The notes beneath the pieces were generated by a model. It was given only the letters and a program-made list of their open reading frames with translations. It was not told the DNA's origin and did no database searches. Positions 6,675 through 29,952 of a stretch of DNA of 64,000 nucleotides are shown here, piece after piece; the first letter of the stretch is position 1; the number at the start of each line of letters is the position of its first letter. Source of the stretch: a plasmid. The stretch lies in the sequence record NZ_CP128202.1, one strand, 5' to 3'. Both the position numbers and the translations under genes were made by a program.

Positions 6675-7216
6675 TTCAGTTGGTGAAAGCCAATTCCTGA
6701 GACCTGAGATCAGAATTTATTCTACATATCTAAAAGCGAATGATGAAACGCCTTTTGCTGATAATAAGGACAGTCAACTGAGCTTTGGTATACAGATGGA
6801 AGCTTGGTGGTAAGACTCTAAAAATGAATCGGGCAATTCCCCCAATTGTCCGAATATTTTGTTGAATGTATTTAAACGCTACACAGAATTTAAACTATTC
6901 ATCGCTCCTGAAATTAGTCTCTCTAGACATCTTTACCCTTGATTTCTCCCGTACTAATTTGTACCAGCTAAAAACGTTATAAGTTGAGTGAGTTTTACAT
7001 ACTTAAAGTAATTCGTGTTTAACTAAATTAAGTAGAAACTCTAACGAGCTTTTGTCCAAAACCTTCTCAAAATGGTTCAGAAATCTTGTGAACCCGTCAT
7101 TCCGCAGCCAATTTCAGAATTAAAACAATGTGATCCAGTGATCGTTTACAAATGTTAGTGCGACAGACCTCTTGACCGCGATCCCCAGTTTTGATCTATT
7201 ACTGTTATTTAACGGT

Positions 7217-7623: not shown

Positions 7624-9177
7624 CTATAGATCAAAGATGTTGGGGTACGGTCTCTTCGCCACAACAGCCGTGATGATCTCACTCAACACTGACATTGCCG
7701 ACAAGCCACGTTTTTTGCAGGTTTCGATGAGGGTATGTACCCTACTGCGGAATTTATCGCCTGCATCCGAGGTCGTTCCGAAGCTGATTTTCCTTTGGAT
7801 TACAAAACCTCTAATACATCGCTCAGCTTCATTATTGGTTAAGGGGATTGACACTTTCTTGAGGAAAACCCACAAGCTCTCTCTATGTTTGAGCAGTAAC
7901 TTGCATCGCCCCCGATATCGCTTGACCATGACATCAGTCCCTTTGCTCAACCAATGATCGAACGATTTCTGCAACCTACGCATTCTTCGTAAGTATAGCG
8001 CATAATTTAACTCATCTTGTTCATAACGATGCCGAGTATGGAAAATGGCGTTCGTCAGCAAACAAAGATGTCTGCCAATATAAGCGGTGTGGCCACCGCC
8101 ACTATAATCCGCCATTTGCTGAAGGTTACGCTTCACATGTGCCCAACATAACTGATGACGGTCTGCGGCTATCCAGTTATAGCTAGGGCACTGGTCGCTG
8201 ACCACAATGACTGCATAGTCTTCATCAATGACCTTTTTCGCTGATGAGGTCGAGCGCGAATAAAGTATTTGCTCATAGACAAGGTCATCACTTGCCACTA
8301 ACCAACACCAGCGAAGGCTTTGTTCATCATTTCTGTGATGAGAGGTCTCGTCAGCATGAATCAAAGGTGATCTGAACCAGGTCACCGTTGCTACTGGAAA
8401 GGTTAGCGATCGTATCGCGCAGAGAAATAATCGGACGATAAAAAAGTTGATCAAGAAAATGCGATAACCACGCAAACTATCGTGGCAACAACCGTCGCAA
8501 GGATCGCATTGTTTCTGGTCCATCGAACTGAGCAAAGGCAATCGAACGGTCTAAGCCAATTGCCTAGTACCATTTTTGTCCCCAACATTAATAACATGTG
8601 AGAACAAGATTTTGGGTTACCCGTTAAGAGTGTAGTCAAACACAGAGCTCTGTTTACCAACAGCATTCAGCACGGCTTCTTAAGCCTAGGATAATCCGTA
8701 ACTTTGTCGCCACTTTTAGTAACAGACGACGATGAAGGCAGCAATGTCGTGTTGTCACTCATGATCACAGCCACCGCACTCGAGATAGTCGTTTTGACCA
8801 TGTCGTTCAAAAACGATAAGGTCAGATCCGCGGATACGGTACCGCCCTGCATTTTTTCGATACAGGAAGCGCGCTGCGCTCTCCAGATTGAGCGCGTTAG
8901 CCAGAGACTTGGTCTGGTTAATCAGTTCATCGGCAGAGCCTGTCATCGGCTGGTTTTTATACTGTTGGGCAATTTTGCTCACACCGCCGGCTTTCTCATC
9001 GATGTAGGAGCTGATCATTTCCGCTTGCTCCAATACAAAACTGTTACTTTGAGCCATAATACTCTTAGTCAAAGAGGTTTTTGCTCGTAGTGGCCAATGC
9101 AACGGAGATTGCAACCAGTAAGATAACGGACAATAATAAGGTCCTTTTAATGCCATGTTTTTCATTATTTTTTCCAT
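7624..9177 (-). pseudogene. IS66-family transposase remnant
   Basis: ORF 7624-8541 carries IS66 TnpC hallmarks: HADETS, CWAHVKRNL and TNNEAERCIRGFVIQRK. The upstream part is broken across frames (8451-9177), including a CGGC zinc-finger-like piece. No IS66 tnpA/tnpB partners. Confidence 0.6.
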
Positions 9178-11190: not shown

Positions 11191-12048
11191 TCAGGCCTTG
11201 TTCTGACCCAGCAATTCCTGCGCTTGAGGCTGAGTCATCGTAATGTGCAGATCACGTTGCGGGAACGGAATGGTCATACCCGCTTCCTCAATCTTACCTT
11301 TCACCTGACGCTGAATGCTCCAGTAGGTTTCCCAGTATTTATCCGTGGTACACCAGGCGCGTAGTTGCAGATTCACTGAGCTGTCCGCCAGCATCTGAAC
11401 CATCACCTGCGGTTTCGGATCCAGCATGACTGCTTCATGGCTGAGCGCTAAATCCTGAAGCACTTTCAGGCCGGTTTCAATTGAATCCTCGTAAGAGATA
11501 CCTACCACGATTTCCATACGACGACGGCCGTTACGGCTGAAGTTACGAATGGTTGCGTTCCAGACGGTGCGATTCGGGCTGGAAATATACAGGCCGTCAC
11601 CGGTTTCAAATACTGAGGTGAACAAACCAATATCTTTTACCGTACCGCTGTAACCGGCAAACTCAACGAATTCACCTTTTTTTATCGGTTTCAGGAACAA
11701 AATCATAATCCCCGCAGCAATATTGCTCAGGGTATCTTTTAATGCCAGGCCAATCGCCAAACCGGCCGCACCGACTAAGGCAACCAAACTGGTGGTATTG
11801 ACACCAAACAGGTCGAGAATAATGACCAGAGCGAGAATGTAGACAATATAACCACCGACTTTAGACATCAGAGACGCGACAATCTCATCACCATTGCTCA
11901 CTTTCATAATGGCTTTCTGAATACCGGCACGCATCAGTTTTGATGCGATAGAAGCAATCACTAAAATAAGCAGGGTTAAAATTGAGTTCTGGATGATATC
12001 CAGAATCAACGCCTGATGTGTCTCGTAAAAGCTGACGAGTAACTCCAT
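11191..12048 (-). CDS. mscS: small-conductance mechanosensitive channel (MscS family)
   Basis: 285 aa. Three N-terminal TM helices followed by the conserved MscS beta domain (GTVKDIGLFTSVFETGDG...). Confidence 0.9.
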   Translation of the reverse strand: MELLVSFYETHQALILDIIQNSILTLLILVIASIASKLMRAGIQKAIMKVSNGDEIVASLMSKVGGYIVYILALVIILDLFGVNTTSLVALVGAAGLAIGLALKDTLSNIAAGIMILFLKPIKKGEFVEFAGYSGTVKDIGLFTSVFETGDGLYISSPNRTVWNATIRNFSRNGRRRMEIVVGISYEDSIETGLKVLQDLALSHEAVMLDPKPQVMVQMLADSSVNLQLRAWCTTDKYWETYWSIQRQVKGKIEEAGMTIPFPQRDLHITMTQPQAQELLGQNKA

Positions 12049-12125
12049 TTTTATCTCCGTAACGGGTTATGGATGTTGTAAAACGGTACCCGGATATCTC
12101 AACCAGGCACCAGCATTAAGCAGCG

Positions 12126-12653
12126 CTAACCAACACTGCCTTGAATCAAGTAAATGTTATAACTTAAATAACACAGAACGAACACTCCCCCTTCCAGGCG
12201 GGAAATAGTTTTTGCTTTACCAATTTTTACCGCAGTGAAGAGCAGCAAGGCCGTACAGAACAGGACCGATGACCAGTCACGCCAGAAAATTTCCGCTCCA
12301 ACATCGGAAATCGGCTCAATGGCACCGGCAATACCGACCACGGCCAGCGAATTAAACATGTTTGAGCCTACCACGTTACCGACAGCCAAGTCATGCTCAC
12401 CTTTACGCGCTGCCGCAAGCGATGCCGCCAGTTCCGGCAATGAAGTCCCCAGAGCGACAATCGTCAGACCAATCGTCAGTTCACTGACACCCAGTTCCTG
12501 AGCAATATTGACCGCTCCCCACACTAAAATGCGAGAGCTCGCGACCAGCAACACCAAACCGGTAACGAGCCAGAAAATAGCGCGGGATAAGGTCATAGAT
12601 TGCGGCATCACCTGTTGTTCTACTTCAGGCGATAGCTGGCTTTTCCGTGGCAT
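12126..12653 (-). pseudogene. Na+/Ca2+ exchanger (CaCA/YrbG family), C-terminal half only
   Basis: 175 aa carrying one alpha-repeat (GTSLPELAASLAAARKGEHDLAVGNVVGSNMFN). Full YrbG-type proteins are about 320 aa with two repeats. The upstream half is replaced by the IS110/IS3 insertions. Confidence 0.7.
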
Positions 12654-12770
12654 TCGTTCACTGGATGAGCAACAACAGAAGTGATCCGCACCAGCAGATA
12701 ATTGGACTCCCCTCCTTACTAACCGTAAGCTAGATAATTCGAAGCTTGCTACATAAAACTGGAGTTCAGC

Positions 12771-13808
12771 ATGAAGAAAACTATCGTTGGTGTCGACTTA
12801 GCAAAGAAAGTGGTTCAAGTTTGTGTCTATGCAAACAAGAAGGTGCGTTCCAATACCGAAATGACGCCGAATGAATTCGCTTTGTGGTTAGCTAACTCCA
12901 AGCCAATGACAGTGATATTTGAAGCGTGTAGTACTTCCAATTACTGGAAGCAGCGGACTGCATCTTTAGGTCATGATGCCCGACTTATTTCTCCAAATTT
13001 AGTTGCTTCAGTAAGACAAAATCAAAAAACAGATAAGAATGATGCACTGGCCATTATTCAAGCTTCATTGCTTCCAGATGTCGCATTTGTTTCTGGAAAA
13101 TCTGTAGAACAACAGCAGCTTCAATCCATAATGCGCATGAGAGAGCTTTGCATGAAGCAAAAGACAGCCGCGAAAAATCAGATTATCGCTTTGCTATCGG
13201 AGTTCAATATTAAAGTGTCTAAGCGCAAGGGTGGATTATTACGAGTTATTGAATCAACACTTGAAGATGCTGAAAACGGCTTTTCTATGGAGTTCAGGGT
13301 TGCTCTCTGTGCAGCTAAAGAACAGTATCTCACTTTGGTTGAAACTATTAGTACTTACGATACCTGCCTTGAGCAATCTATAAAGTCTCATCCCGACTGC
13401 AAAAAACTTCTGAAGATCGAGGGAATCGGAATACTGAACGCCATAAACTTGTACATTGCACTGGGCTGCGCGGATATCGGCTCTTTCACAAAAGGGAAAG
13501 ATGCCGCGGCATGTATTGGTTTAACACCGATACAACACTCCTCGGGAGGTAAATCCAAGGTGGGGTCTATAGGTCGCCGAACAAAGAATACCATTTTAAG
13601 AAGTCAATTGATAACAGGGGCAATGTCTATAGTCAATCACTTAGGGACTAGAGCAGCTAAAACGAAGAAAGAGCTATGGCTTAAAGCGCTGATTGAGCGT
13701 CGAGGCAAAAAGTGTGCAGCAGTCGCTTTAGCCAATAAAAATGTTAGAACAGCCTTCGCCTTGCTTACCCAAGGTTCGGAATACAAAGCGGATCCTGTAT
13801 CAGCTTAA
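12771..13808 (+). CDS. IS110-family transposase (345 aa)
   Basis: N-terminal DEDD-type domain (GVDLAKKVVQVCV...). C-terminal IS110 motif (GIGILNAINLYIALG...GLTPIQHSSGGK). Confidence 0.9.
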   Translation: MKKTIVGVDLAKKVVQVCVYANKKVRSNTEMTPNEFALWLANSKPMTVIFEACSTSNYWKQRTASLGHDARLISPNLVASVRQNQKTDKNDALAIIQASLLPDVAFVSGKSVEQQQLQSIMRMRELCMKQKTAAKNQIIALLSEFNIKVSKRKGGLLRVIESTLEDAENGFSMEFRVALCAAKEQYLTLVETISTYDTCLEQSIKSHPDCKKLLKIEGIGILNAINLYIALGCADIGSFTKGKDAAACIGLTPIQHSSGGKSKVGSIGRRTKNTILRSQLITGAMSIVNHLGTRAAKTKKELWLKALIERRGKKCAAVALANKNVRTAFALLTQGSEYKADPVSA

Positions 13809-14063
13809 ACGTGTCAAAACAGTGAAATGCATATATGATAAAAATCAACTGGTTATGCAGGTCCAAAACAAGAGCTTCTAGCTCGTCTAGCAGAATTGCA
13901 ACTAGTTCGCGTAAATATCATAGAGCCTGAGTTCGCTACTCTTCGAGAGCTCGTACATAAGTGCGCATTTATTTCATATTATAATTTTTACTGTTGACAA
14001 CGGGGAGTCCACATAAGTTTTGGACACTGAGTTAAGTGAGTACAATCACTAACGAGGTGAACC

Positions 14064-14345
14064 ATGACAAACAAGAAGAAACGTATTATCCATTCTCCTG
14101 AATTTAAAGCCGAAACTCTGAAGCTAGCAGAGAACGTGGGAGTCGCTGCGGCAGCAAGACAGCTCTCCTTACATGAATCTCAGATCTACGCTTGGCGCAA
14201 GACTGTAAAGAAAGACACCACAACCAGTCAGCGAGAACAAGAGCTAGCCGCTGAAGTAGCCAAGCTTAAAAGGCAGTTGGCAGAACAAGCAGAAGAGCTA
14301 GATATCGTAAAAAAGGCCACCTACTTCGCGAAAAATCTAAAGTAG
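14064..14345 (+). CDS. IS3 transposase OrfA (HTH)
   Basis: 93 aa. HTH then leucine zipper (LAAEVAKLKRQLAEQAEEL). Confidence 0.9.
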   Translation: MTNKKKRIIHSPEFKAETLKLAENVGVAAAARQLSLHESQIYAWRKTVKKDTTTSQREQELAAEVAKLKRQLAEQAEELDIVKKATYFAKNLK

Positions 14346-14359
14346 ATTGCTATGAATTC

Positions 14360-15210
14360 ATGCTAGAACACCTGCTGTGCTTCAGTGTTGTCCGCATGGC
14401 TAAGGTGTTCAGGGTTTCTCGAAGTGGGTTTTATTATTGGATTAAGCATCGCCACAAGGCTATTCAACGCGAAGCAACTCGCCAAGAACTTGATACAAAG
14501 GTTAAAGATGCTTTTGACAACAGTAAGGGGAGAGATGGTTCAAGGCGCATCCAGAAAGAACAGTCTGAGAACGGTGATAGCCATGATGTTAAAACCATTG
14601 CAGCCAGCATGAAGCGTCAGGATTTAACGCCGAAAGCGGCACGCAAGTTTAAGTGTACAACGGACAGCAAGCATAAGATGCCTGTAGCTCCGAACTTGCT
14701 AGCTCAGGACTTTAATGCAACGGCCCCGAATCAGAAATGGGCGGGAGATATCACGTATCTTGCCACAAGCGAAGGCTGGTTGTATTTGGCTGTGATCATT
14801 GACCTTTACTCACGACAAGTAATAGGCTGGTCGATGGATACGAGGATGACGGCAACACTGGTCTGCGATGCATTATCAATGGCTCGTTCCGTCGAGGCTT
14901 CCCAGAGGAAGTTATTGTTCATAGTGATCGGGGTAGCCAGTATTGCTCAAAAGATTATCGAGACCTCATAACTGCTTATAATCTAAAACAAAGTATGAGT
15001 AGGAAAGGAAACTGCTGGGACAATGCTTGTGTTGAGAGCTTCTTTCATTCGATGAAAGTAGAAGCGATTCAATACGAACCGATAATGACGAGAGATGAGA
15101 TGCGCCAAACGGTCTTCGAGTACATAGAGGTTGATTATAATCGGACGAGAAGGCACAGTGCTCTTGGATATCTAAGCCCAGTTAACTTTGAACAGCAAAA
15201 TGTCGCTTAA
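14360..15210 (+). pseudogene. IS3 transposase OrfB, carrying an extra frameshift
   Basis: DDE-integrase core (WAGDITYL..., [12 protein letters not shown]). The frame breaks near 14880: MARSVEAS should read [22 protein letters not shown]. The C-terminal motif [10 protein letters not shown] resumes in the +1 frame at 14995-15210. This is separate from the programmed orfA/orfB frameshift. Confidence 0.8.
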
Positions 15211-15809
15211 TGAAGTGTCCAGTCTGGCTGGAGCAGATCATCATTGGTGTTACCACTCAGTGCTTGCATGTAAACAGGAATACCTGCTTGGTTTTCACAG
15301 ATGAGTTCAAGCACGACTTGGTTAAGCTCTGGCCTATGATCCCGACTATAACCTCTTACAAGCTTAATCACGTTGGTGTTTTCATCTTGTGCATACTCAC
15401 CATCAACGTGGAAGCTAGTGATATCAAGATGAACAGAATCGGTCGTCAAGCCCAGTTTATCAACAACACGCTCAGCAATAACCTGATAGAGCGCTGAGAC
15501 ATCGGCTTCGTATAGAGCATCTAATGTGCGGCCTAGTACATCATCAGTCAGGTGGTGTGCTTCAATGTCTTTGGCGAGTAGCTTAGATACAGGCTTGGTC
15601 TTAAAAAAGTCCGAGAACATGTGCAGTGTTCTGCTATGAAAGCCAAGTCCATTTAGGAGCATGGCCAATACCGCGTCACCATGAGAAACATTGTGGTCAG
15701 AATATTTTGGGATAACGGCATCTATCATCCGTGGCAGGCCAATTTCGTGACAAAAGGCGGCAATGAGACCAAGGTGATCTAAGCGTTTAATAACAGGATG
15801 GGTAGACAT
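15207..15809 (-). pseudogene. IS1634/IS4-like transposase, N-terminal 200 aa, truncated by the IS3
   Basis: N-terminal LDHLGLIAAFCHEIGL-type domain (DUF4277-like, family assignment from memory). The ORF runs straight into the IS3 right end at 15240. Confidence 0.6.
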
Positions 15810-16081
15810 ATTTTGAGACCGTCAAATAGCAGTAATAGATCAAAACTGTCGATCGCGGTCAAGATGGTGTCGTAGTTTTTATGAAAAGCTGATCGCCAGA
15901 TCACACTATTTAAATTCTGGAATTAGCTGCGGAATAACGGATAGAATGGTCCATCACTGGCATGGGCGGGCAAGATGAATAGCAAGAAAATAATGATTGG
16001 GATGGTCACCCATGGGATGAACCAAGGGAGAGTGTCCTGAATTCTGTGTAACTGTCTAGACTTAAGCCTTAAAGGCTAAGG

Positions 16082-16435
16082 ATGGACAATATGGATAAGA
16101 AAGCACTCGAAGCTTTTGCTCGTGAAGCAGCAAAGTCAATTAAGACAGAATCTGATCTTGATGACTTCCGAAAAATGTTAACCAAGGTGACCGTTGAAAC
16201 GGCGTTAAACGCTGAACTCGATGAGCACCTTGGATATCAAAAACACCAATCTAGAACCAGCTCCAACTCCCGCAATGGTTACTCGGGTAAGTCAATCATC
16301 ACCGATGATGGAGAGGTCGATATCGACGTCCCTCGCGACCGTGAAGCCAGCTTTGAACCTCAACTCGTCCGCAAGCACCAAACTCGATTCCAATCCATGG
16401 ACGACAAGATATTGAGCCTATACGGGGTTCTAGGG
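16082..16435 (+). pseudogene. IS256 (mutator-type) transposase, N-terminal part
   Basis: NSRNGYSGKSIITDDGEVDIDVPRDREASFEPQLVRKHQTRF matches the IS256 transposase N-terminal region. The ORF reads through into the Tn3-type IR (GVLGIFPSKVT). Confidence 0.85.
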
Positions 16436-16517
16436 ATTTTCCCCTCTAAAGTAACATAGAATGCTACAGGCTTTGTATTATATAGCCTCCAGCTGTGGGT
16501 TACTTTCGTTTCCAAGC

Positions 16518-16871
16518 TTAATCATCCACGATTGGCTTCGTAATTTCACTAATATCAGGCAATTTTCCGGTATTGGTGAAGTTATACGTCCCGCTTAAGT
16601 TGATATTTTGCCATGCAACGGGCGAAACAGCACGAGTGATAGCCGCTTTTTCTTCATCACCTGTCGCTTCAAAGTGTCCCAGAAGATGACTCAGTATCGC
16701 GGAGTTGAAGTAGATGAGCGCATTGGCAAGCAATCTTGCGCATTCATTCCAGATAGCGATTTCAGACTCGTTTTTGCCACGGAACTGATCACCATTCACC
16801 GACGCAATGGCTCGTCTAAGGAAGTGCCATGCTTCTCCCCGGTTCAGGGCACGTTGCACATACTGCCGCAA
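16518..16871 (-). pseudogene. second copy of the last 117 codons of the Tn3-family tnpA
   Basis: About 94% aa identity to residues 413-529 of the 16969-18558 ORF. It is followed by its own IR (16424-16455) and stops exactly where IR copy b begins at 16875. Confidence 0.75.
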
Positions 16872-16874
16872 ACT

Positions 16875-16905
16875 GGGGTTCTAGGGATTTTCCCCTCTAA
16901 AAAGA
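16875..16905. repeat. internal Tn3-family IR copy (IR-b)
   Basis: ggggttctagggattttcccctctaaaaagacata. Identical to the outer IRs for 27 bp, then diverges. Confidence 0.75.
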
Positions 16906-16968
16906 CATAATCCTCTGTAGACCACACCAATAAATGGCTGCGGAGGTGGTTTACTTTCAGCTTGGAGC

Positions 16969-19949
16969 CTAATCATCCACTATCGGCCTTGTTATTTCGC
17001 CAATATTGGGCAATTTCCCAGTATTAGTGAAGTTATACGTTCCGCTTAAGTTGATATTTTGCCACGCAACGGGCGAAACAGCACGAGTGATACCCGCTTT
17101 CTCTTCATCTCCTCTCGCTTCAAAGTGTCCCAGAAGATGACTCAGTATCGCGGAGTTGAAGTAGATGATCGCGTTGGCAAGCAATCTTGCGCATTCATTC
17201 CAGATAGCGATTTCAGACTCGTTTTTGCCACGGAACTGATCACCATTCACCGACGCAATGGCTCGTCTAAGGAAGTGCCATGCTTCTCCCCGGTTCAGGG
17301 CACGTTGCACATACTGCCGCAAACTGGCATCGTCGATGTAGTCAAGTAAATATTGCGCTTTAACCAGTCGATTATACTCCGTCAGAGCCTGTAATATTGG
17401 GTGTCCAGAAGGGTAACCAGACAACTTTCTTACCAGCATTGCTTGTGTCGTCCGCTTTGTCTGAAGTGACAGAACAATACGCCTGATATCTTGCCATCCC
17501 GTTGTAATAACATTCGTTCTGATAGGCTTCTTTAGCGCCAGTATGGTGCTGCCTTGTTCACTTTCAGTCACATCAAACAGATCATTGATGACACTACTGA
17601 ACTGCGCGTATCGCGGTGCAAAACTGTAACCGCATAGATCCAGTAAGGCGAAGTTAACATGATTGACACCGTGTGTATCTGTCGAGAGTACGTCAGGTTT
17701 GATTTCACTGCTGTTGGATTGTAACAGGTCATAAATATAGTGTGATTCGTGCTCGTTGGAACCGATGATCCGAGCATTGAGGGCGCTGTGGTTGGCCACC
17801 AGTGTCATGGCCGTGATCCCTTTGTTGGTGCCGAAATACTTAGAGGAGTACCGGGTTTTAAAGGTTTCCAGATGGGTTTCGAATTTCTGACCATCCGCAC
17901 TGGCATGCAGCTGGTCCTCCTGAATATGGTAGTGGCGGAAGATGGGTAGCGCTGCAACCGCATTATTGATCACGTCGCTGGCGTCATGCAGCGTTTCAGG
18001 CCGGATATAGTTGGCCTGCACCGTACTCAGGTGTTCATAGCTTCGATCGGAGATCTGCGCCATGCCATACACACCACGGTGAGTGGCGTTGGCAATCAGA
18101 ATGGCCAGTAAATCATCCTGATGAGTGAACCCTTGTTTTTGTATCGGAAGTACATGAGTCAGACATTTCATGAACCCGGTTTCGCGCTCTACATACCGCA
18201 GTACATCCGCGATACCGACCGGTTGCATTCGCTTAAAAAAGGGATTGTTGACCAGAGATGTAGCGCTTTTGGTCGGCAGACGCCAGCGGGTACCGGTACG
18301 ATTTTTCATGATCACATTTCGATTGTCTCCCTCATCAATATGGAGAGCAACGTCTTTGAGTGCACTTTCCAGCCGGTGTTGTTTCTCCTGTAACAATAAC
18401 TCTGCGGGCTGTTTTAGTCTGTCCAGTGTTGATGAGGCCAGCAAGGTATCCTGCGATGTCTGGGGATCAGGTCGTCTTCCAGTGCGCGGTATTTGGTAAC
18501 ATTTGGCAAATAAATGCGTCCATTCAGTCGTGAGGTTAACTGCCGGTAGAGCAGCCATTCGTAACGTTGCGGGTTAACGTTATCCTGTTTAACCAACCAT
18601 GGGAGGTGCTTTTTCGGGATGAGCGACGTATCCATCGTCTTCAGTGGTCCACCGAATGCGATTTCCGTCTGCATCTGTTGAAGTTGGGCGACGACGGCTT
18701 CTGAGCCTTTACCGGCCTCACATTCAAGGCACAAGAACACCTGCCTTAACAGTTGCTCCAGGAGATTGCATTGTTCATCGTAATGTTGCCACTGGTACTC
18801 TTCCACGGTCCGTTTCTGTTTTTTCAGGTAAAGGCAGAGGGTCTGGATATCCCTGTCATTCATGACCTTCAATGCCTGTTGTCTGACTACTGAGAAGGGC
18901 TGATTGTCATCAATATTCTCGTCAACAAACAGGTGAAGTAGCTCTGCCGCTTTCGTGACATTGTCCGCAGCTGACTGCCAGGACAGGAACACTGCTTGTT
19001 GTGCAAAGGCGTTGGCGGCTTCCTGTTGTTTTCGGATATGGTAAACAAACCCATCCGTCAGGCGCTCCAGTGCAAGTTGCATGCGCTCTGTCAGATGACA
19101 CAGTAACCACAGGTGCTGCTGTGAGCGTTTGAAGCGCCGCACTTTACTGCCGTAGTAATCAATAAGGCCGCTGAAGTGTTGTCGATTTTTTAGCGACAGA
19201 TTGAGCCTGTCCACAACGTCATTTATTTGCGTGTGCCATGGTGCTAACCGGTGGTAAATGGCGAGCTCTTTTTTAAGCTCAGGCACGGTCAGACTTTTGG
19301 CACCACCCCTGAGATGGCTCAGACTCAGCCCGTCGTCTTTAGTAGTGATTATGTTGTCCAGAAAGACGTTAAGTTCATTACTGGTAAGTTGATTCAGTTG
19401 GAGCGTCAGGTCTTTTCTGACCTGTTGCATTGTGCGGCTTATCAGTCTTTGAAGCACGGAGTACTTAGGAATGGCAATGTTATGGCTGGCAAGGTATTCA
19501 ATGGCCGCATCAAAGAGGTGTCGAGGCTCCAGCCAGGCATGACCAATGTAAACCAGGTGGTGGCACAGAGCATTGAGGTGCTGTTTTTCATTCCACTTAT
19601 TGTAATTTAGTAGACGCAGTATCCTTGAGTAAATACGGTCACGCTGCATTTTACTGACACTGAAAGGCCTGATCCCTTTACCTCTTTGAATTTGGGAGGC
19701 AATAAACTGCATGTCGATACTGATATCACGGAAACTCGGAGCAATGATCACTGGCTTAGATTTAAAATAGCCCAGAAGCGCCACGAAATAACAACGATGT
19801 TTAGTAAGCCTGATAGTACGGCATTCGGCCTGTTCTACATCGTTTAGCGAAAAATACAAACGTTGTTCCTCAATAGAAAACTGAGGTGCTGAATACAAGT
19901 CTCGTTGTTCTGCCTGAGTCAGAATCGAGAGTTCATTACTAATTGCCAT
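16969..19949 (-). pseudogene. tnpA: Tn3-family transposase TnpA split into two overlapping ORFs
   Basis: ORF 18414-19949 (511 aa) is the N-terminal half and ORF 16969-18558 (529 aa) the C-terminal half. The C-terminus matches the Tn3-family end (LSPxxWxHINLxGxY). The 145-bp overlap in different frames implies a frameshift. Combined length about 990 aa. Confidence 0.8.
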
Positions 19950-20087
19950 GATGAATAAACGCCAATATGATTGATGGTGTTTATATAAGATGGCAGAATA
20001 TTGGAAGGTAACCCACCGCCACAGACCATATAATATAATACCTGTAGCGTTCTATGTTACTTTAGAGGGGAAAATCCCTAGAACCCC

Positions 20088-20968
20088 TATACGCGAAAGG
20101 CATGACCACACGTGAAATCGTCGCAACGTTCAAGGAAATGTATGATGCTGATGTCTCACCAACGCTGATATCGAAAGTAACCGACTCGGTGCTTGAGCAA
20201 GTGATTGAATGGCAGTCGCGACCTCTCGACGAAATTTACCCTATCGTTTATCTCGATTGCATCGTGGTTAAGGTGCGTCAAGACAAGCAAGTCATCAACA
20301 AAGCGGTCTATCTTGCGTTAGGCGTCAACATGGAAGGCCAAAAAGAACTGCTCGGTATGTGGCTCTCTGAAACAGAAGGTGCCAAGTTCTGGCTTAACGT
20401 GCTGACTGAACTTCAAAACCGTGGGGTAAAAGACATCCTTATCGCTTGCGTTGACGGACTAAAAGGCTTTCCTGACGCCATCAACACTGCGTTCCCAGAG
20501 ACGCAAATACAGCTCTGTATCGTCCACATGGTGCGAAACTCGGTCAAGTACGTCCCTTGGAAAGACTATAAAGCGGTGACGACTGACCTGAAGAAAATCT
20601 ACCAATCAGCCACAGAAGATGAGGCTCTGCTGGCTCTAGCGCAGTTCTCTGACCGATGGGATAGTAAGTATCCTCAAATCAGTCGCTCTTGGACGGCGCA
20701 TTGGGACAACCTCAACCCCCTGTTTAACTACCCAGAGGATATTCGCCGAGCCATTTACACGACTAACGCCATTGAATCCCTCAACAGCGTTATTAGAAAA
20801 GCGATTAAGAAGCGCAAGCTCTTCCCAACGGATGAATCAGCTAGAAAGGTGATCTACCTGGCTATCCGAGATGCTTCCAAGAAATGGACGATGCCGATCA
20901 GAAACTGGCGACAAGCTCTAAACCGCTTTATGATTATGTTCGAAGACCGACTCACTCAATACATGTAA
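20088..20968 (+). pseudogene. IS256 transposase, C-terminal part
   Basis: MTTREIVATFKEMYDADVSPTLISKVTD... and the rest of the IS256 DDE domain. Joining 16423 to 20093 restores SLYAKGMTTRE in frame. Confidence 0.85.
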
Positions 20969-21329
20969 CCCCGACAGTTACACAGAATTATTTACAGGGT
21001 CAACCAAGGGAACAAGGGGGTTCTCATTGTCAGCTCCAGAAAATTTCATAGAGCTAACATGCTAATGATCCCGGTAAGAGCGATTGGCCAGATAGATGAA
21101 TGAATCGTGTGTTTTTCTGACTAGCTGTTGTGACCAGTAACAACAGCTAATTTTAACGAGCCAAATTTATGATTGGACCGCTTTGAGCGAATTGCGGAAA
21201 TTTCTCTTCGTATCATAGTGCTCATTCAAAAGTATGCTTTGTTTGATATAGCGGGCATTACCTTTTCGGATTTTATTGCCCATAAACTACTAAATTAAAA
21301 CCCGCTTAATGTACCTTACTAATTATCTT

Positions 21330-24300
21330 TTAAAAATGCAGCTCTTCTATCCGACACGGTTTTCCGTATAAATAGCCTTGATAGGTGTGACACCCCATAC
21401 TCTGCAATAACGCGCGCTGAGCTTCTGTTTCAACACCCTCAGCTATGACTTGCAGTTCAATTGAGTCGGCTAATGTTATAACTGCCTGAGCGATGGCCCT
21501 ATCATTACTGCTATTGATAATATCTCGAACAAACCCTTGGTCAATTTTCAACTGATTTATAGGCAATTGTTTTAAGTAGGATAAGGATGAATAGCCTGTA
21601 CCAAAATCATCGATTGAAAAAGTCACGCCGTGCTGCTGCAACTCTTTCATCTTAGCTTTAACATCAGGAATGTTATTTGCGAGCAACGTTTCCGTAATTT
21701 CCAGCTTTAGCAACTGTGGATTTGCACCTGAGGTTTTCAATGCATTTAAAACAGTCTGAACAAAATTATCTTTGCTAAATTGAACTACGCTTATGTTAAC
21801 CGCAATGCTTAGGTGTTGTTTTTCGGATTCTAAAGACCATTTTGCCAGAGTGGCGCAAGCTTCCTCTAGCACCCACTCGCCAATGGGCACAATAAGACCT
21901 GTTTCCTCCGCTAATGGGATAAATTGCAGTGGCGACACCATGCCTTTTTCTGGGTGTATCCAGCGTAACAATACCTCAACACCAATACACTGCTTCAGGT
22001 GATTGACCTGTTTTTGATAGAAAAGTACAAATTGTTGGCTTTGTATTGCGGAGTATAAATCACTCACAATTGACGCTCTTGAGCTTACTGAGACTTGCAT
22101 TTGCGGGTCAAAAAACTGCACACCATTTCGGCCAGCATATTTAGCCTTGTACATAGCCATATCAGCTTGCTTTAACAAATCTTCTTTGGGTAGATTTTCA
22201 CTGTTAAAAAGTGTTACACCAATGCTTGCCGAACTATTGTAAGTTAGACCGTCAAGATTATATTCCCTTGTTAAATTACTCACGATTTTTTGTGCAAGCC
22301 TCTCAGCCTGGTTCGCTGCTAATGTTGGTTCATGACTTAAATCTGATGCAATAATAACAAACTCATCGCCGCCTAAACGCGCTACGGTATCACCTTGTCT
22401 CACTGAGTTAACAAGACGCTCAGCGACCTGACCCAACAGCAAATCACCTTTATTATGACCAGCACTATCATTAAGGTTTTTAAAGTTATCTAAATCAAGA
22501 AAAAATAATGCTGAGAAGTTCCTTGTACGAACGCTATGATTTATAGCTTCCGTCAATCTGTCCAACAACAGACGTCGATTAGGTAGCAATGTTAATGGGT
22601 CATAAAATGCTAACTGGTGAATTTCATTTTCACGTTGTTTACGCTCAGTGATATCCCTGACAACACCGATAAAGTTAACTTCACCAGCCATTTGAACTTC
22701 AACTATACTAAGCTCGATTGGAAACATAGAACCATCTTTGCGCAAGGCCTCAAGCTCACGAATACGCCCAGTAATCTCACTGACACCACGTTCTATATAA
22801 TTTGATAAGTAGCTATCGTGATGCTCTCGATGAGGTGACCCCATCAACATGCTAATATTTTTGCCAAGCGTTTCATCTTCCGTATAGCCGAAGATTTCCT
22901 GTGCGGCTTGGTTAAATGTCAGAATTTTACCACGACCATCAATAGTAATAATGCCATCAAGCAACCCTTCAACAACAGCTTCCATCTGCCTTGACTTATC
23001 ACTAAGCGCTTTTTCTGCAATTATTTGGTCATTGATATCAAAGTGTGTACCCAATAACCATAGAGCTTTGCCATCATATATCCTTGAAGAAATACGCCCT
23101 CTGGTGTTTATCCATATCCATTCACCATTTTTGTGTTTCATACGAAGATTGGCTTCATATATGGGTATTAGGCCTGACACGTGCTTTTCAAGAATAGTTG
23201 TACAATAAGCCAGGTCATCAGGATGCGTTAGCCTTTCCCACGTGTATCTGTTTGCAGGTAATAGCTCAGAAAGTGTGTAACCCAGTAATGCGGCCCATTT
23301 ATCATTGATAATCAACTCGCCTGTTTGAATATTAAAATGCCATGTGCCTATATTGTTAGCGTCTATTACGGCCTTAAGTAAATTCTGACTGTTCCTTATG
23401 AGCTCTTCATCCTGTTTCTCTTTTGTAATATCTGTTTCAATTGCAATATAGCCGCTCAAACTACCACTTTCACTAAACAGCGGGTTACAAGCTATTCTCA
23501 CCCAGTAGGAATTTTGCGCTTTTGAATAATTTACAACATCAACATTAAAGCCGTTCTGTTGAGCAAGCGCATCTCTCATTATTGCAACAGTTGCCGGATC
23601 AGTGTCTTCCCCTTGTAATAACTCCCCAGGCTTTTTACCCTGCATTTCTTCAATGCTATATCCTGTAAGAAAGGAGAAGGCTTCATTAATCCATATAACT
23701 CGACCTTTGACATCAGTTATTACCACACCATTGGTTGTCTGCCTTGCAACTTCAGAAAGGCGTCTTATTTCTGACTGCGCTTCAACTTGTGCAGAGGTAT
23801 TACGAATGACCACTAATACTTCATTATCATCAATCTTTTTGTATCGGGCTTCGAACGATTGATTTGACTTTTCAAACGTGTAGTTATGATGAATCACATC
23901 GTTGTTACAAAAGGCTTGCTTGAGGCACTCTACGAGTTGATGACCTAGCTCATTGGGTAGTATCTCATGAACGGTACGCCCCAAAATCGCTTGTTGAGGT
24001 TTAAGTAAGTCAGGATGCTCTTTGCAAACCAAAAAACGAAAGTTTCGGTCAATAACAAATACCATATCAGGCAGTGTTGCCAGTATTGAGGTTGTTCTTG
24101 CCATGCCTTTTAAAAACTGCTCTTGAAGTCGAGCTTGATCTTCTTTGGCAATTTCATACTCAACCATGTCTGCAAATTCGCGCAGTTCTTGCTGCTCTTT
24201 TGCTGAAAAGTCTCTGGCCACGGAGTCAATTAGACATAGAGTGCCGATGGGTTGCCCACTTGTCTCTCGCAGCGGTGCACCCGCATAAAAACGAATATGC

Positions 24301-24623
24301 GGCGCGTGGGTTACTAAAGGATTTGACGAAAAGCGCTCATCTTTTGTTGCATCTGAAACAATTAAAATATCCTCATGCAATATCGCATGGCCACAAAATG
24401 AGATATCACGGCCTGTTTCACAAGCGTCAAGACCCACTTTAGATTTAAACCATTGCCGGTCACTATCCACCAAAGAGATAAGGCATATTGGCACTTTAAA
24501 TACAGACGCGGCTAATCTTGTAATGCGGTCAAAGCGCTTCTCTGCTGGCGTATCCAGCAAATTACTTCGCTGTAATGCAAGTAAACGAGCAGCTTCATCA
24601 ACAGGGAATTCAGGTGCGTTCAA
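21330..24623 (-). CDS. GAF-PAS/PAC(x3)-GGDEF-EAL signalling protein (c-di-GMP turnover)
   Basis: 1097 aa. N-terminal GAF, three PAS/PAC modules, GGDEF motif RLGGDEFVII, EAL domain (ELLRW..., QLLKLEITE, DDFGTGYSSL). Confidence 0.9.
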   Translation of the reverse strand: MNAPEFPVDEAARLLALQRSNLLDTPAEKRFDRITRLAASVFKVPICLISLVDSDRQWFKSKVGLDACETGRDISFCGHAILHEDILIVSDATKDERFSSNPLVTHAPHIRFYAGAPLRETSGQPIGTLCLIDSVARDFSAKEQQELREFADMVEYEIAKEDQARLQEQFLKGMARTTSILATLPDMVFVIDRNFRFLVCKEHPDLLKPQQAILGRTVHEILPNELGHQLVECLKQAFCNNDVIHHNYTFEKSNQSFEARYKKIDDNEVLVVIRNTSAQVEAQSEIRRLSEVARQTTNGVVITDVKGRVIWINEAFSFLTGYSIEEMQGKKPGELLQGEDTDPATVAIMRDALAQQNGFNVDVVNYSKAQNSYWVRIACNPLFSESGSLSGYIAIETDITKEKQDEELIRNSQNLLKAVIDANNIGTWHFNIQTGELIINDKWAALLGYTLSELLPANRYTWERLTHPDDLAYCTTILEKHVSGLIPIYEANLRMKHKNGEWIWINTRGRISSRIYDGKALWLLGTHFDINDQIIAEKALSDKSRQMEAVVEGLLDGIITIDGRGKILTFNQAAQEIFGYTEDETLGKNISMLMGSPHREHHDSYLSNYIERGVSEITGRIRELEALRKDGSMFPIELSIVEVQMAGEVNFIGVVRDITERKQRENEIHQLAFYDPLTLLPNRRLLLDRLTEAINHSVRTRNFSALFFLDLDNFKNLNDSAGHNKGDLLLGQVAERLVNSVRQGDTVARLGGDEFVIIASDLSHEPTLAANQAERLAQKIVSNLTREYNLDGLTYNSSASIGVTLFNSENLPKEDLLKQADMAMYKAKYAGRNGVQFFDPQMQVSVSSRASIVSDLYSAIQSQQFVLFYQKQVNHLKQCIGVEVLLRWIHPEKGMVSPLQFIPLAEETGLIVPIGEWVLEEACATLAKWSLESEKQHLSIAVNISVVQFSKDNFVQTVLNALKTSGANPQLLKLEITETLLANNIPDVKAKMKELQQHGVTFSIDDFGTGYSSLSYLKQLPINQLKIDQGFVRDIINSSNDRAIAQAVITLADSIELQVIAEGVETEAQRALLQSMGCHTYQGYLYGKPCRIEELHF

Positions 24624-24715
24624 AACGTTACTCCAATAATTTGCTGCTTAATCGATTATTATCAATTGTACTGCAAGAATACACTGTTAAATGTTTTAGG
24701 CTTTCACTTGAAAGA

Positions 24716-26269
24716 TTACCGCTTAAACCGTACTACCAGTTCATGAAGCTCATCAGCAATCTTGTTCAAATAAATAATCGTCTCTGAAAGCTGCATCGAG
24801 CTGTCATTACTTAAATCGGCAAGCGTTGAAATATTTACTATTTGCCGGTTAATGTCTTCAGCAACATGGGCTTGCTCTTCCACTGCTGCAGCCATTTGGG
24901 TCGACATAGAAGCGATTTGACCTATGGATTCTGAAATACCGCTTAACATTTTGCCGCTTTCAATAACATTAGAGAGTCCCTCTTCGGCATCAATAGCGCC
25001 TGCATCAGCGATTTTTACGGCATCACCTGCTCGATGAGTTAACTCGGTGACGATACCGTAAATCTCTTTTGTCGACTCCTGAGTACGCCTTGCGAGATTT
25101 CTAACCTCATCTGCAACTACCGCAAAACCTCGCCCCTGCTCACCAGCACGAGCAGCTTCAATAGCGGCATTAAGCGCAAGAAGATTGGTTTGGTCGGCAA
25201 TCTGCTCAATCATTTGTGCCGCATTGGCAATACGAGCGGTTTGTTCTGATACACCGCGAACAGAGCTACCAATTTGCTCTACCGTGAGTTTTAACTTTTG
25301 AATAGAGCCCCTGGTTACATTAGCCACCTCATTACCCTTCGAGGCAAGATGATTAGCGGTGTCAGCCTGTATTGCAGTATCACTGACATGCTTAGATACT
25401 TCAGCAATAGTCGTCGACATTTCGTTCATCGCGGTGGCGACTTGCATCGTTTCAGACTGCTGACTCTCTATATCTTTTCGCGTTTTTGCTGTGAGCTCCG
25501 CGCCTTTTTCAGACTCTTTGGCAACGACAAGCGCTGCACTTTCTATGCGGGTAATCACCGTGCCTAAATGCGCTAACTGACTCAGAATAGCCACTTTTAG
25601 CTTACCTAAATCACCTGTTTCATCAGTGTAACTTTGTACTGCAAGTTCATCTGAAAATGCAAGATTGAGCATCTCGTTTAATGCATTCAGGGTTTTCTTT
25701 CTATTTAATGAGACCCAAAAGGCAAAGATGATGACAGAGACAAGCAAAGCTAACTCAGAAAGCTCTTTGAAACCGAAGCCAAATAAACCAGCACAAATGG
25801 CGATAGATAAGATTAAAAAAGCATTTTCAAGTGATATGGGTAAAGCGGCGCGTTTCGTTTTGCCGGCATTGATATCACGATACAGCTTAGCTGCTCGTTC
25901 AACGTCTTGTCTTGATGGACAAGAGCGCACAGACTCATAACCGATCACCTTACCGTTCTGTGTTACTGGCGTAACATAAGCGTTTACCCAGTAAAAATCG
26001 CCATTTTTACAACGATTTTTCACCAAGCCCATCCAAGGTTTTCCAGCTTTGAGGTAATGCCACATTTTTTCATATGCCTCTGAAGGCATATCAGGGTGCC
26101 TCACCACATTGTGAGGCTGCCCTATTAGCTCATGTTTTTCAAAACCACTGACTTCAACAAAGGCATCATTGCACTCAAGAATAGTCCCTTGAGTATCCGT
26201 GACTGAAATTAACTTAGTATTGCTTCCGAACGTTTTTTCTCTATCAGTAACAGGAAGGTTTTTACGCAT
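24716..26269 (-). CDS. Aer-like methyl-accepting chemotaxis protein with N-terminal cytoplasmic PAS
   Basis: 517 aa. N-terminal PAS without signal peptide, then TM hairpin ([16 protein letters not shown] / [13 protein letters not shown]), HAMP, and the MCP signalling domain with methylation-helix pattern. Confidence 0.85.
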
Positions 26270-26625
26270 GAATGTTCCTTATCGCAAAGTATTGAAAAAC
26301 TAACCTAAATTGTAATATGGCGAGTTACTTAAAAATAGATAGTTAAAGCTCAAGATTCTCTGCAGACGCCAACGCACCTTGCCCATCAATCCCCAAATAG
26401 CGCACCGTACTCTCAATTTTATGAAATAAATTTTTATAGTGGCTTCCCGACATTTTGAGAAACCATGACGTCTGGCCACTTGGTATTGATACAAAGCTCT
26501 CTAAAATAAAGTTCAAAAAAATACACGAATTGAGGAAGGCTTAATCAGTGAATTCCGCTCTGCAACCGAAAGCTGACGTTCGTTGTGAAAGACTGAAATG
26601 TCAGCAACTGGCACATAAGTAATAT

Positions 26626-26873
26626 TGATCTGCTCCAGCCAGACTGGACACTTCATTAAGCGACATTTTGCTGTTCAAAGTTAACTGGGCTTAGATACCC
26701 AAGAGCACTGTGCCTTCTCGTCCGATTATAATCAACCTCTATGTACTCGAAGACCGTTTGGCGCATCTCATCTCTCGTCATTATCGGTTCGTATTGAATC
26801 GCTTCTACTTTCATCGAATGAAAGAAGCTCTCAACACAAGCATTGTCCCAGCAGTTTCCTTTTCCCCGCTCCG
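26626..26873 (-). mobile_element. solo 3-prime fragment (about 250 bp) of the same IS3 element
   Basis: Essentially identical to 14995-15240, including the IRR tgatctgctccagccagactggacacttca. Identity breaks at about 26873, inside the GNCWDN codons. Confidence 0.85.
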
Positions 26874-26987
26874 GCATAAGCGAATCCCTTAACATTATCA
26901 CCCGCCTGAACCGCATCAATGATGTCATTCATTTCCGGCGTAAGGTTGTGTTCTCCAATTGTTCGTTCTGAACTTTTTATTTCCATA
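26874..26987 (-). pseudogene. 5-prime stub (about 38 codons) of a P-loop helicase-like gene, truncated by the IS3 fragment
   Basis: [42 protein letters not shown] ends in a Walker A motif (GxAGxGK) at the position typical of RecD/TraA-type (AAA_30) helicases. The frame then runs into IS3 sequence. Confidence 0.4.
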
Positions 26988-27000
26988 TATCACCTGCCTT

Positions 27001-27561
27001 TTAACTTAGTTTTTCTTTATAGCCTTTTATCGATGCGGTTATTGGTATTACCCTCTCTTTGATTGGAATCGATTTTAATGGCTCATGAGAATGTTTTGAA
27101 GCAGCAAGCAGATGAAAGTGTGATTTCATCAAATTCTTAACCACGCTTCGATGAGAATAAAGAACATCTTCCATCTCTTCTATCATCTCCAATTCCCATT
27201 CACGAGCATGTTTGAACTGTGCGCGTTTGTATTTACCCTCCCTCGGTGTTGCAATGGCTTTGACTACGCGAATTGTTTTACTCCCACGCTTAACAAATTG
27301 AACCCTAATCCATCGGCATGTGAATGCAATGCCAGTAAATTCCAAACGAAACTCGTAATTCGTTGATTCAGTCCGTCTGCTGGCATCACCTCGACGGCTA
27401 AGCTCTCGCTCCGCCACCTTGCGCATCCAGATTGAATGCACAATCTTAGCTCCCTCGTATTCTCTGTCTATCTGTGCGTATATTGCCGCTTGTATTGCTG
27501 CAAATGACATCTTTAAACGATCTCCATTATGCTTAAAGTTGTTTTCAACAAATTTTACCAT
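27001..27561 (-). CDS. hypothetical basic protein (186 aa; start possibly the downstream Met MSFAAIQ)
   Basis: Intact ORF directly upstream of the truncated helicase stub. A perfect 22-bp palindrome lies in its promoter. No confident family assignment. Confidence 0.4.
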   Translation of the reverse strand: MVKFVENNFKHNGDRLKMSFAAIQAAIYAQIDREYEGAKIVHSIWMRKVAERELSRRGDASRRTESTNYEFRLEFTGIAFTCRWIRVQFVKRGSKTIRVVKAIATPREGKYKRAQFKHAREWELEMIEEMEDVLYSHRSVVKNLMKSHFHLLAASKHSHEPLKSIPIKERVIPITASIKGYKEKLS

Positions 27562-27575
27562 AACAAATGTAGTAA

Positions 27576-27597
27576 CAAAATGTAGTTACATTTTGTA
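27576..27597. promoter_or_regulatory. palindromic operator-like site upstream of the 186-aa gene
   Basis: caaaatgtagttacattttg is a perfect palindrome. A direct half-site aatgtagtaaca lies just upstream. AT-rich promoter context. Confidence 0.4.
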
Positions 27598-27970
27598 CTA
27601 ACAAGTTAAGGACAAAATAGCATGATTTTTTGTATTATAAGTCATAGGCGACCTTCGACTCGCTTGGTCGGATCGCCAGATGGGATGCAATGATCGCCAA
27701 ATCTGGCTTGGTGCTGGTAGTGATAGCTGTCCAAGATGAGGCGTTTTTCTGGTTGGCTACAGAGGTGATGTGTACTGGCAATTTAACATAATTACTTATA
27801 TCTTTGCGATTTTGGAATTATTTTTGATGTGGTAGGATTAATTTAATTCTAATTTATTAATGGATGGATATGTTTATGGAAGGTATAGTTGTGTTGGTTA
27901 TTATGTATTTTTGGATGCGATTTGTTTTTAAACTTATCATTCCTCGCTGTAATTCTTTTAGGAAGTTTAT

Positions 27971-28430
27971 TTGGTATTGTATGCTAGGGATTTTTTAAAA
28001 TTGAGGTGGAACATGAGTAAAATAATTCATATTTTTATTTGTATTTTTGCAGTGGTTGTGAATTTTACAACGGCTTTTGCAAGCACAAATCTTTTGAGTG
28101 ATGATGGTGATAAGTTGTTGGTCGAATCAATTGTGTCATCAACTTTTGGTAACTCGGATAACCTATCATCTATCAGTGACTACAATATTCATAACGCAAA
28201 AATAAAAGCGGCAGAATTTACAGGTGAAGTGAATATGTCGACTCCCGCACTAAGGTTGTGAACGGACGTATTTCTAAGCAACAGGTTAGAGTCATTTCTT
28301 CCAGTTATGTGCGACTCGTCTCATTGGATGAACGCAAAGCGGTAGATGATTTGGGTAATTTTACTCTGACCTCAATTGCTACGTTTGAGTTAAGAAAATC
28401 TGATGTCATGAATCATGATTAAAAGACTTA
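27971..28430 (+). pseudogene. secreted protein, paralog of the N-terminal domain of the 399-aa protein at 34238-35437; frameshifted
   Basis: Signal peptide MSKIIHIFICIFAVVVNFTTAFAS. The frame switches near 28228. The continuing frame reads EYVDSRTKVVNGRISKQQVRVISSSYVRLVSLDERKAVDD, which aligns with TYIESVLQVSNQTITKQQVRVLTAGFLEVLSREDKRSVGA of the 399-aa protein. Confidence 0.45.
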
Positions 28431-28520
28431 AAAATGAGGAAGATTTACTTGATAGAATTCAAAGTTTACAATCAAAAAATGATGAACTTATGTTGATTAT
28501 TGAACGTCTATCGTCTGGTG

Positions 28521-29681: not shown

Positions 29682-29825
29682 AATGGTATCTCCAATTTTT
29701 GATATAAAAAAAAGGACATACCATTACCCGCTAGGGCAAATGATATGCCCTATGGCGGTGTAGAAATGTAGATAAGTCGCGCTAAACGCTAGGACTTATC
29801 TTTCTTTTTCAGTGCTTTTTTGCGA

Positions 29826-29936
29826 GTTGTCTGTCGCACCAAGCGTTGATTTGAGGGGAATAAAGAGCCACTAAACTGACTATTAATCCACCAGCGATAA
29901 TCACAAATAAACCATTCATGATGATCTCCTTGTTTA
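29826..29936 (-). CDS. tiny single-TM peptide (36 aa)
   Basis: MNGLFVIIAGGLIVSLVALYSPQINAWCDRQLAKKH with a strong RBS (aggagatcatcATG). Not in the supplied ORF track, which only lists ORFs of 60 aa or more. Confidence 0.3.
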
Positions 29937-29952
29937 TGTTCTATGCCAAATA

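Follow-up and report, generated by a model that had tools for sequence, protein, structure and literature searches.

The 64,000-nt stretch of plasmid sequence analyzed here (record NZ_CP128202.1; hereafter, the window) contains an IS256-family insertion sequence (IS) whose transposase gene is split by a 3,664-bp insert of the Tn3 family. The insert carries three copies of its terminal inverted repeat (IR) and two right ends in tandem, and it is probably what is left of a much larger composite transposon that carried multidrug resistance. The features of the locus, in window coordinates, are as follows.

16021–16029: left copy of the 9-bp target duplication ACCAAGGGA
16030–21002: IS256-family element, interrupted, its transposase gene split by the 3,664-bp Tn3-family insert
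16030–16423, plus strand: left part of the IS256-family element, with an imperfect terminal IR (core 16040–16056) and the first 114 transposase codons (16082–16423), covering PF00872 profile positions 9–111
16419–16423: left copy of TATAC, the 5-bp duplication from the Tn3-family insert, which also lies within the IS256 transposase reading frame
16424–16874, minus strand: A′, the remnant of a left arm ("A2"), with an outer right-end IR (16424 to ~16507) and a truncated tnpA 3′ end covering PF01526 profile positions 294–389
16518–16871, minus strand: the truncated tnpA 3′ end within A′ (last 117 codons)
16870–16877: junction ...CAAACT/GGGG..., with the breakpoint ambiguous within TGG and a target side reading cgcAAACTggc
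16875–20087, minus strand: B, a complete 3,213-bp element of the ISShfr9 group forming the right arm, bounded by the internal IR at 16875 and, at 20087, by the end of its left-end IR (long-IR arm 20004–20087)
16969–19949, minus strand: tnpA of B, 993 amino acids (aa) once repaired, with a 1-bp deletion in the G run at 18461–18464
20088–20092: right copy of TATAC
20093–21002, plus strand: right part of the IS256-family element, with transposase codons 115–405 (open reading frame (ORF) 20102–20968) and the terminal IR (core 20973–20989)
21003–21011: right copy of ACCAAGGGA

When the insert and one TATAC are taken out in silico, a 1,304-bp IS is obtained with an uninterrupted 405-aa transposase in which the sequence SLYAKGMTTRE is regained. 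The restored protein matches the IS256 model NF033543 at 430 bits (cut-off 150), and its two halves span PF00872 profile positions 9–377. The size of ~1.3 kb, the imperfect terminal IRs with a 17-nt perfect core, and the 9-bp ACCAAGGGA duplication are those of the IS256 family, and the restored IS aligns in one colinear piece with uninterrupted copies from Vibrio parahaemolyticus and Photobacterium damselae plasmids (94–96% identity). A sister plasmid, pVFBJ05 of Vibrio furnissii, is without IS256 and has one copy of ACCAAGGGA at its empty site. An initial annotation of the window had described this locus as a nested transposition, in which a resolvase-less Tn3-family element entered an IS256 transposase gene exactly at TATAC, the frame is regained upon removal of the insert, and the IS256 keeps its own 9-bp duplication; each of these statements agrees with the coordinates given above.

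The 27-nt IR core of the insert, GGGGTTCTAGGGATTTTCCCCTCTAAA, occurs exactly three times in the window (16424, plus; 16875, plus; 20087, minus), with zero occurrences expected by chance. It is identical at all three ends, each of which begins with GGGG, in keeping with the Tn3-family pattern of GGGG-initiated terminal repeats of at least ~38 bp. Alignment of the IR-proximal segments reveals 87% identity over 84 nt between the two outer IRs (16424 and 20087) and only ~35 nt of matching sequence between these and the internal IR at 16875. The tnpA gene of B is broken into ORFs of 529 and 511 aa, which give matches to PF01526 (E = 3e-124) and PF13700 (E = 4e-29); addition of one G yields a 993-aa TnpA that matches NF033527 at 972 bits (cut-off 500). 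There is no resolvase, and no ORF besides tnpA in 16424–20087 has a recombinase match. The three GGGG-initiated IRs, with a second right-end copy at 16875, and a frameshifted TnpA of ~990 aa as the sole product, without resolvase, had been recognized in the initial annotation, which had also reported a 94%-identical copy of the last 117 tnpA codons. The overall figure stands (16518–16871 against 16969–17322, 333 of 354 positions, 94.1%), but the identity is mosaic rather than even, as all 21 mismatches fall within 16518–16722 and 16723–16871 is identical. Compared as a whole, the right ends show 25 differences among 383 aligned positions, besides a divergent subterminal stretch of ~70 nt: 27 identical nt are followed by ~70 very divergent nt, ~200 nt of ~90% identity, and ~150 identical nt. 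This unevenness is taken to reflect recombination between family variants. A recent tandem duplication or self-insertion of one element was considered and rejected, as each right end is 100% identical to a different natural variant and the two differ from each other to the extent just described.

A megablast search against PLSDB returned 203 plasmid records, mostly from Vibrio, Alteromonas, Photobacterium, Proteus, and Enterobacterales, in which the usual element is ~3,213 bp long and carries tnpA only. Window positions 16875–20087 are 99.97–100% identical to the copies that adjoin ISVsa3 in the Vibrio plasmids pC1579 and pVFBJ05, and the copy adjoining ISVsa3 in pVb1762 is 99.9% identical to the right arm of pVFBJ05. 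The neighbor of ISVsa3 is labeled ISShfr9 in the literature (PMC10434038; PMC4036041), and the PGAP product name of a closely similar protein is "Tn3-like element ISShfr9 family transposase." ISShfr9 is counted among the resolvase-less, IS-like derivatives of the Tn3 family, and the absence of a resolvase is expected for members of the ISShfr9/IS1071 type (PMC4337579). By sequence comparison, and with the name taken from the literature label and the PGAP product name, the insert is assigned to the resolvase-less ISShfr9 group of the Tn3 family. It shares with ISShfr9 (cf. ISVsa19, ISBusp1, and IS1071) the 3.2-kb size, a TnpA of ~993 aa (DUF4158 and DDE_Tnp_Tn3) as the only product, GGGG IRs, and 5-bp AT-rich duplications, whereas its three IRs, its extra truncated tnpA, and the frameshift in its only full tnpA set it apart. 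The 5-bp duplications are TATAC in the window, TATTT in pVFBJ05, ATTAC in pVb1762, and AAAAA in Escherichia coli pNDM15-1078. In a scan of representative genomes, the IR core, which is widespread among marine Gammaproteobacteria, was found at no fewer than 120 loci. A relative 3,211 bp long, 75% identical to ISShfr9 and sharing the first 35 nt of the IR without mismatch, is present in 182 PLSDB records and is widespread in plasmids of Klebsiella, E. coli, Providencia, and Acinetobacter.

Positions 1–63863 of the window are a rearranged sister of pVFBJ05 (NZ_CP128206.1), with blocks that are 99.5–100% identical and a shared backbone of ~51 kb at 99.5–99.8% identity. Relative to pVFBJ05, the window is missing a 20.7-kb resistance transposon and has gained an IS110-family element and the IS256 with its ISShfr9 remnant. 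The transposon of pVFBJ05 is a composite unit of 20,675 bp (12002–32676) that is flanked by TATTT and sits at a site 1.6 kb from the window's insert. It reads, in order, outer IR, arm A2 (with an intact 992-aa tnpA), IR, cargo (sul2, strA, strB, tetA/R, floR, dfrA, and ISVsa3), IR, arm B, and outer IR, with the two arms in direct orientation. Two further features are of relevance.

12002–15213 and 29464–32676 of pVFBJ05: the arms of the composite, which are reciprocal mosaics
14783–14787 of the window: the empty target TATTT in single copy, inside a frameshifted IS3-family orfB, occupied by the composite in pVFBJ05

The same unit in Vibrio alginolyticus pVb1762 (18,346 bp, ATTAC-flanked) has been described as an ISShfr9-bounded composite transposon (PMC10434038), and there is a report of a V. 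furnissii chromosome with a transposon of similar content (tet(A)-floR-sul2), "flanked by Tn3" (PMC12737722).

The window insert corresponds to sequence from both arms of this composite. Positions 16424–16876 are 100% identical to pVFBJ05 12002–12454, the first 453 bp of A2, and also to the right end of the pNDM15-1078 element. Positions 16874–20090 are 100% identical to pVFBJ05 29463–32679 (for B itself, 16875–20087 and 29464–32676), including the 1-bp deletion in tnpA, which pC1579 does not have. The order and orientation of A′ and B are those of the composite arms, and pVFBJ05 15214–29462, the cargo region, has no match of 300 bp or longer in the window. Because its segments match both arms at 100% in the same order and orientation, the insert equals the composite minus everything from A2 position 452 through the right IR tip of B. 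The two related but non-identical right ends in tandem that the initial annotation had noted thus each derive a perfect match from a different arm of the pVFBJ05 composite. The insert shares with the ISShfr9-bounded composites of pVFBJ05 and pVb1762 the outer IR pair, the two arm variants, their order and orientation, and the 5-bp duplication behavior; in contrast to them, it lacks the entire cargo as well as 2.76 kb of the left arm, and it lies at another target, in IS256. What the window carries is a deletion derivative of an ISShfr9-bounded multidrug-resistance composite and not that transposon itself. Between the window and pVFBJ05, there are 0 mismatches in the 3,666 bp of the element versus 72 in 51,071 bp of backbone, where ~5 would be expected in the element at the backbone rate. 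This difference suggests that both plasmids took their copies from one recent source after their backbones had diverged.

The arms themselves are mosaics. A2 and B are identical over element positions 300–2000 except for the 1-bp frameshift deletion of B, and they differ at both ends. The pNDM15-1078 variant is identical to A2 over positions 1–500 and differs from it from 500 onward, and it is identical to B over 1912–3214 and differs from it over 1–300 and 500–1912. In the composite, the outer IRs match each other, as do the inner IRs (44 of 45 positions), and a stand-alone element with both IRs of the inner type is present at 16 genome loci. The matching outer IRs, the matching inner IRs, and the existence of the inner-type element alone suggest that the composite may have arisen when two ISShfr9 variants, one of which was linked to the resistance region, underwent homologous recombination. 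The reverse derivation, of the pVFBJ05 composite from a three-IR element via circle recombination, was discarded, as it would leave a fifth IR and a nested junction, and pVFBJ05 has neither.

To describe target choice, a matrix was built from 112 independent flanks of the ISShfr9-type IR family, with position counts taken over 114 flanks. The preferred target is approximately CC[AWWWT]GG, with C at −7 and −6 (68/114 at −6), A at −5 (73/114), and T at −1 (62/114), and the duplicated pentamer is 84% A+T. One breakpoint of the window deletion is the IR tip of B, within the 3-nt ambiguity TGG. The other, cgcAAACTggc (AAACT, 447–451 nt from the A2 end), ranks 30th among 3,193 arm positions on the matrix; a random deletion end falls in the top 1% of target matches only 1% of the time. 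Because one breakpoint is an IR tip and the other a top-1% match to the target consensus, the data suggest that the deletion was made by transposase, in an attack by the right arm on the sibling arm's tnpA. Replication slippage or illegitimate recombination in the composite would account for the 3-nt microhomology (TGG) shared by both breakpoints, but a transposase-independent event, with ~17 kb in which to break, would have had to place one breakpoint within 1–2 nt of an IR tip and the other at a top-1% target match, and four other tandem-end structures likewise break exactly at IR tips. We regard such an origin as very unlikely. Deletions that abut Tn3-family ends and result from intramolecular "cis" transposition are documented in clinical plasmids; in the Tn1331::IS26 derivatives of KPC plasmids, they begin exactly at the transposon end and one flanking duplication is removed (PMC5142620). 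The window deletion likewise starts exactly at a transposon end. It differs from these "cis" deletions in its target, which is the sibling's transposase gene, so that the only working transposase of the composite was disabled as well.

The exact junction was sought in three collections. Its 33-mer is absent from 185,579 representative genomes. No contiguous junction was found in PLSDB: a 240-bp query gave two-piece matches only (among the matches listed), and a 50-bp query had no match spanning the junction. In the metagenome search there was one match, contig OJFL01000606.1 (positions 1–1261), which has the junction ...CAAACT/GGGG at the window's exact nucleotide with a different pair of elements. 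Its tnpA fragment (55 nt) agrees at every position with the P. damselae ISShfr9 variant and has 5 mismatches to the window, and the element that follows the IR is 75% identical to ISShfr9. AAACT at 447–451 has thus been hit by two different elements, arm B of the window and the 75%-identical relative; either the site was used twice independently or it is a hot spot. Given the target preference, the recurrence is less surprising, although it is still mildly unexpected. A near-match to the junction in Marinobacter was dismissed as a chance flank (ctctaact). The components of the locus are from known families (ISShfr9 of the Tn3 family, and IS256).

Structures of a similar kind are found elsewhere. 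pC1579 has tandem left ends in direct orientation, with a 625-bp left-end fragment following a complete ISShfr9 (6215–6840 in the examined stretch). In P. damselae p1 (NZ_CP076735.1), 772 bp of an ISShfr9 right end are followed by the IR of the 75%-identical relative (5603–6375 in the examined stretch), and the breakpoint ranks 53rd on the target matrix. Alteromonas oceanisediminis has tandem ends in direct orientation as well. In one structure of this kind (7934–8000 in the examined stretch), an IR abuts tnpA position ~615, a breakpoint unlike those of pC1579 and P. damselae p1. Pseudoalteromonas sp. AOP31-A2-14 has three IR cores within 8 kb (233, plus; 2590, plus; 7121, minus) whose spacings do not fit a simple 3.2-kb element, and this cluster may be another composite or a cargo-bearing derivative.

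The three-IR arrangement is reminiscent of Tn1721, which is thought to be derived from two copies of Tn1722 flanking a tet cargo, one of them partly deleted, and which moves whole or as the minor element (PMC5736529). As in the Tn1721/Tn1722 pair, there are three IRs, two of them like-oriented (16424, plus, and 16875, plus), and a truncated tnpA beside the outer one (16518–16871). In Tn1721, however, the tet cargo is still present between the like-oriented IRs, and there are a resolvase and a res site; the window insert, in which the deletion reaches the inner IR, has neither cargo nor resolvase. Between the like-oriented IRs of the window there is no passenger gene, only a 451-bp end fragment, and the likeness to Tn1721 is one of analogy, not of membership.

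Taken with the observed anatomy, identities, target duplications, and empty sites, these findings make it probable that the 3,664-bp insert arose by collapse of the ISShfr9-bounded multidrug-resistance composite. What follows on the sequence of steps, the single-step mechanism, and the origin of the transposase is inferred. The parent would have consisted of an outer IR, A2 with intact tnpA, an IR, the region sul2-strAB-tetA-floR-(dfrA)-ISVsa3, an IR, B with frameshifted tnpA, and an outer IR. Transposase would have acted on B and joined its right IR tip to the AAACT target in the A2 tnpA; because the tnpA of B is frameshifted, this transposase presumably came from A2. The remainder of A2 and all cargo, ~17 kb in the pVFBJ05 version (sul2, strAB, tetA, floR, and ISVsa3), would have been lost, leaving the outer IR, 451 bp of A2, and the complete B, and the event would have destroyed the transposase gene of A2. 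The simplest route would be intramolecular "cis" replicative transposition, which in one step deletes the DNA between the transposon end and the target. Alternatively, B could have inserted into A2 intermolecularly and the copies of B then recombined homologously, a two-step route to the same product. The TATAC duplication is the trace of a normal Tn3-family insertion, either of the full composite before its collapse or of the remnant afterwards; that is, the composite may have inserted and then collapsed, or the collapsed remnant may have entered IS256 with help in trans. Bounded by the outer IR pair of the full composite and now without a working transposase, the remnant could, judging from its sequence, be moved only with such help.

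The initial annotation had suggested, as one possibility, insertion of one element into a resident relative despite transposition immunity. The attack on a relative's tnpA is retained in our interpretation; the relation of the partners is not, as they are best read as sibling arms of one composite with the loss of ~17 kb, and not as a free element in an unrelated copy. In the latter scenario, a free copy of B would have entered the tnpA of a stand-alone resident ISShfr9 of the A2/G type that had nothing to do with the composite, after which transposition into IS256 would have used the resident's outer IR together with the far IR of B, or the rest of the resident would have been lost by homologous recombination over the 1.3 kb common to the variants. 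The final structure would be identical, stand-alone elements with the same 453-bp right end do exist (for example in pNDM15-1078, AAAAA-flanked), and the identity of the pNDM15-1078 variant to B over element positions 1912–3214 would permit the recombination. Simple nesting of this kind, which is close to the earlier interpretation, nevertheless requires the same variants, order, and orientation and the private frameshift of B to coincide with the composite arms of pVFBJ05 and pVb1762, and no AAACT-flanked nested parent was found in PLSDB, the GTDB representatives, or the metagenome collection. We therefore consider it unlikely.

One-ended transposition is known for some Tn3-family members, and the initial annotation had offered it as a second possibility. 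A single right-end IR with 451 bp of adjacent DNA would then have been placed beside a complete element, and the fragment does begin exactly at an IR. By this process, however, the junction would not be expected to fall right on the tip of a second complete element, since the variable end of the transposed segment would have to hit another element's IR tip precisely, and the matched outer IR pair (84 nt, 87%) bounding the 3,664 bp together with a clean 5-bp duplication is what a normal two-ended event produces. An origin by one-ended transposition is extremely unlikely. There is equally little to recommend an assembly artefact in which two ISShfr9 copies were mis-joined, an explanation to which we give only the slimmest chance. 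The region is rich in repeats and ~150 bp beside the junction are identical in both copies, yet the interior of tnpA that is joined to the IR tip is no shared repeat, so that repeat collapse cannot create the junction; the two copies differ at 25 of 383 aligned positions and over the divergent ~70-nt subterminal stretch, and the locus is coherent in its flanking 5-bp duplication and in the IS256 frame that removal of the insert restores.

Several points weigh against the proposed collapse of the composite. The parent state, a full composite inside this IS256, is in no database searched, and the window replicon is not among the PLSDB records or the GTDB representatives, so that lineage relations are drawn from one sister plasmid. 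The junction is taken from the assembled sequence, and the TGG microhomology there leaves a small possibility of a transposase-independent deletion. Lastly, leaky or absent immunity is needed, because Tn3-family target immunity should disfavor an attack on DNA with the same IR.

On this last point, the tandem-end structures described above suggest that target immunity is not absolute in the ISShfr9 group, a small hint, from sequence comparison, that immunity may be leaky in this Tn3 subgroup. A more general proposal, that ISShfr9-group transposases combine weak or no target immunity with a marked preference of the CC[AWWWT]GG type and so repeatedly attack a few consensus sites in sibling tnpA genes, is speculative and, in our estimate, rather doubtful. 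If it is true, composite resistance transposons would have, in such "fratricide," an inherent way of losing their cargo and disabling themselves, with three-IR scars as the outcome. The history is one of ordinary mobile-element decay that happens to be traceable, and both the kind of element and the mechanism are already known. Its value would lie in providing a datable, fully traceable case in which a multidrug-resistance composite lost its cargo and its own transposase in one transposase-made step, with two sister plasmids of the V. furnissii type holding the "before" and "after" forms at different sites, and in guiding the annotation of three-IR scars in Vibrio and Alteromonas plasmids.

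The window has a second, unrelated Tn3-family transposase at ~58277–60878 (minus strand), with its neighbors. Its counterpart in pVFBJ05 adjoins a ParDE toxin-antitoxin pair and a serine recombinase, and because of these it is regarded as a separate unit transposon. As a mobilizer of the remnant, this TnpA (about 58.3–60.9 kb) was considered and set aside as an unlikely helper, being 20–29% identical to the ISShfr9 TnpA.

Upstream of the IS256, a 1.3-kb insertion at 12698–14015, which has no counterpart in pVFBJ05, encodes a 345-aa IS110-family transposase (12771–13808; NF033542, 249 bits). It is followed at 14064–15809 by an IS3-family element (orfA, 14064–14345; orfB, frameshifted, 14360–15210) and a 200-aa fragment of an IS1634-family transposase (15207–15809). 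The IS3, the IS1634 fragment, the IS110, and the IS256 jointly form an IS "graveyard." In the two sister plasmids, ISShfr9-based units have hit two different IS transposase genes, the IS3 orfB in pVFBJ05 and the IS256 gene in the window.

An ISShfr9 variant with both IRs of the AAAAAGAC type has likewise inserted into a transposase gene, in this case at codon ~916 of that of another Tn3-family element (about 51% aa identity), with an ACAAT duplication. Many marine genera and a Providencia chromosome share this very insertion; because it recurs across these hosts, it probably travels inside a larger transposon.

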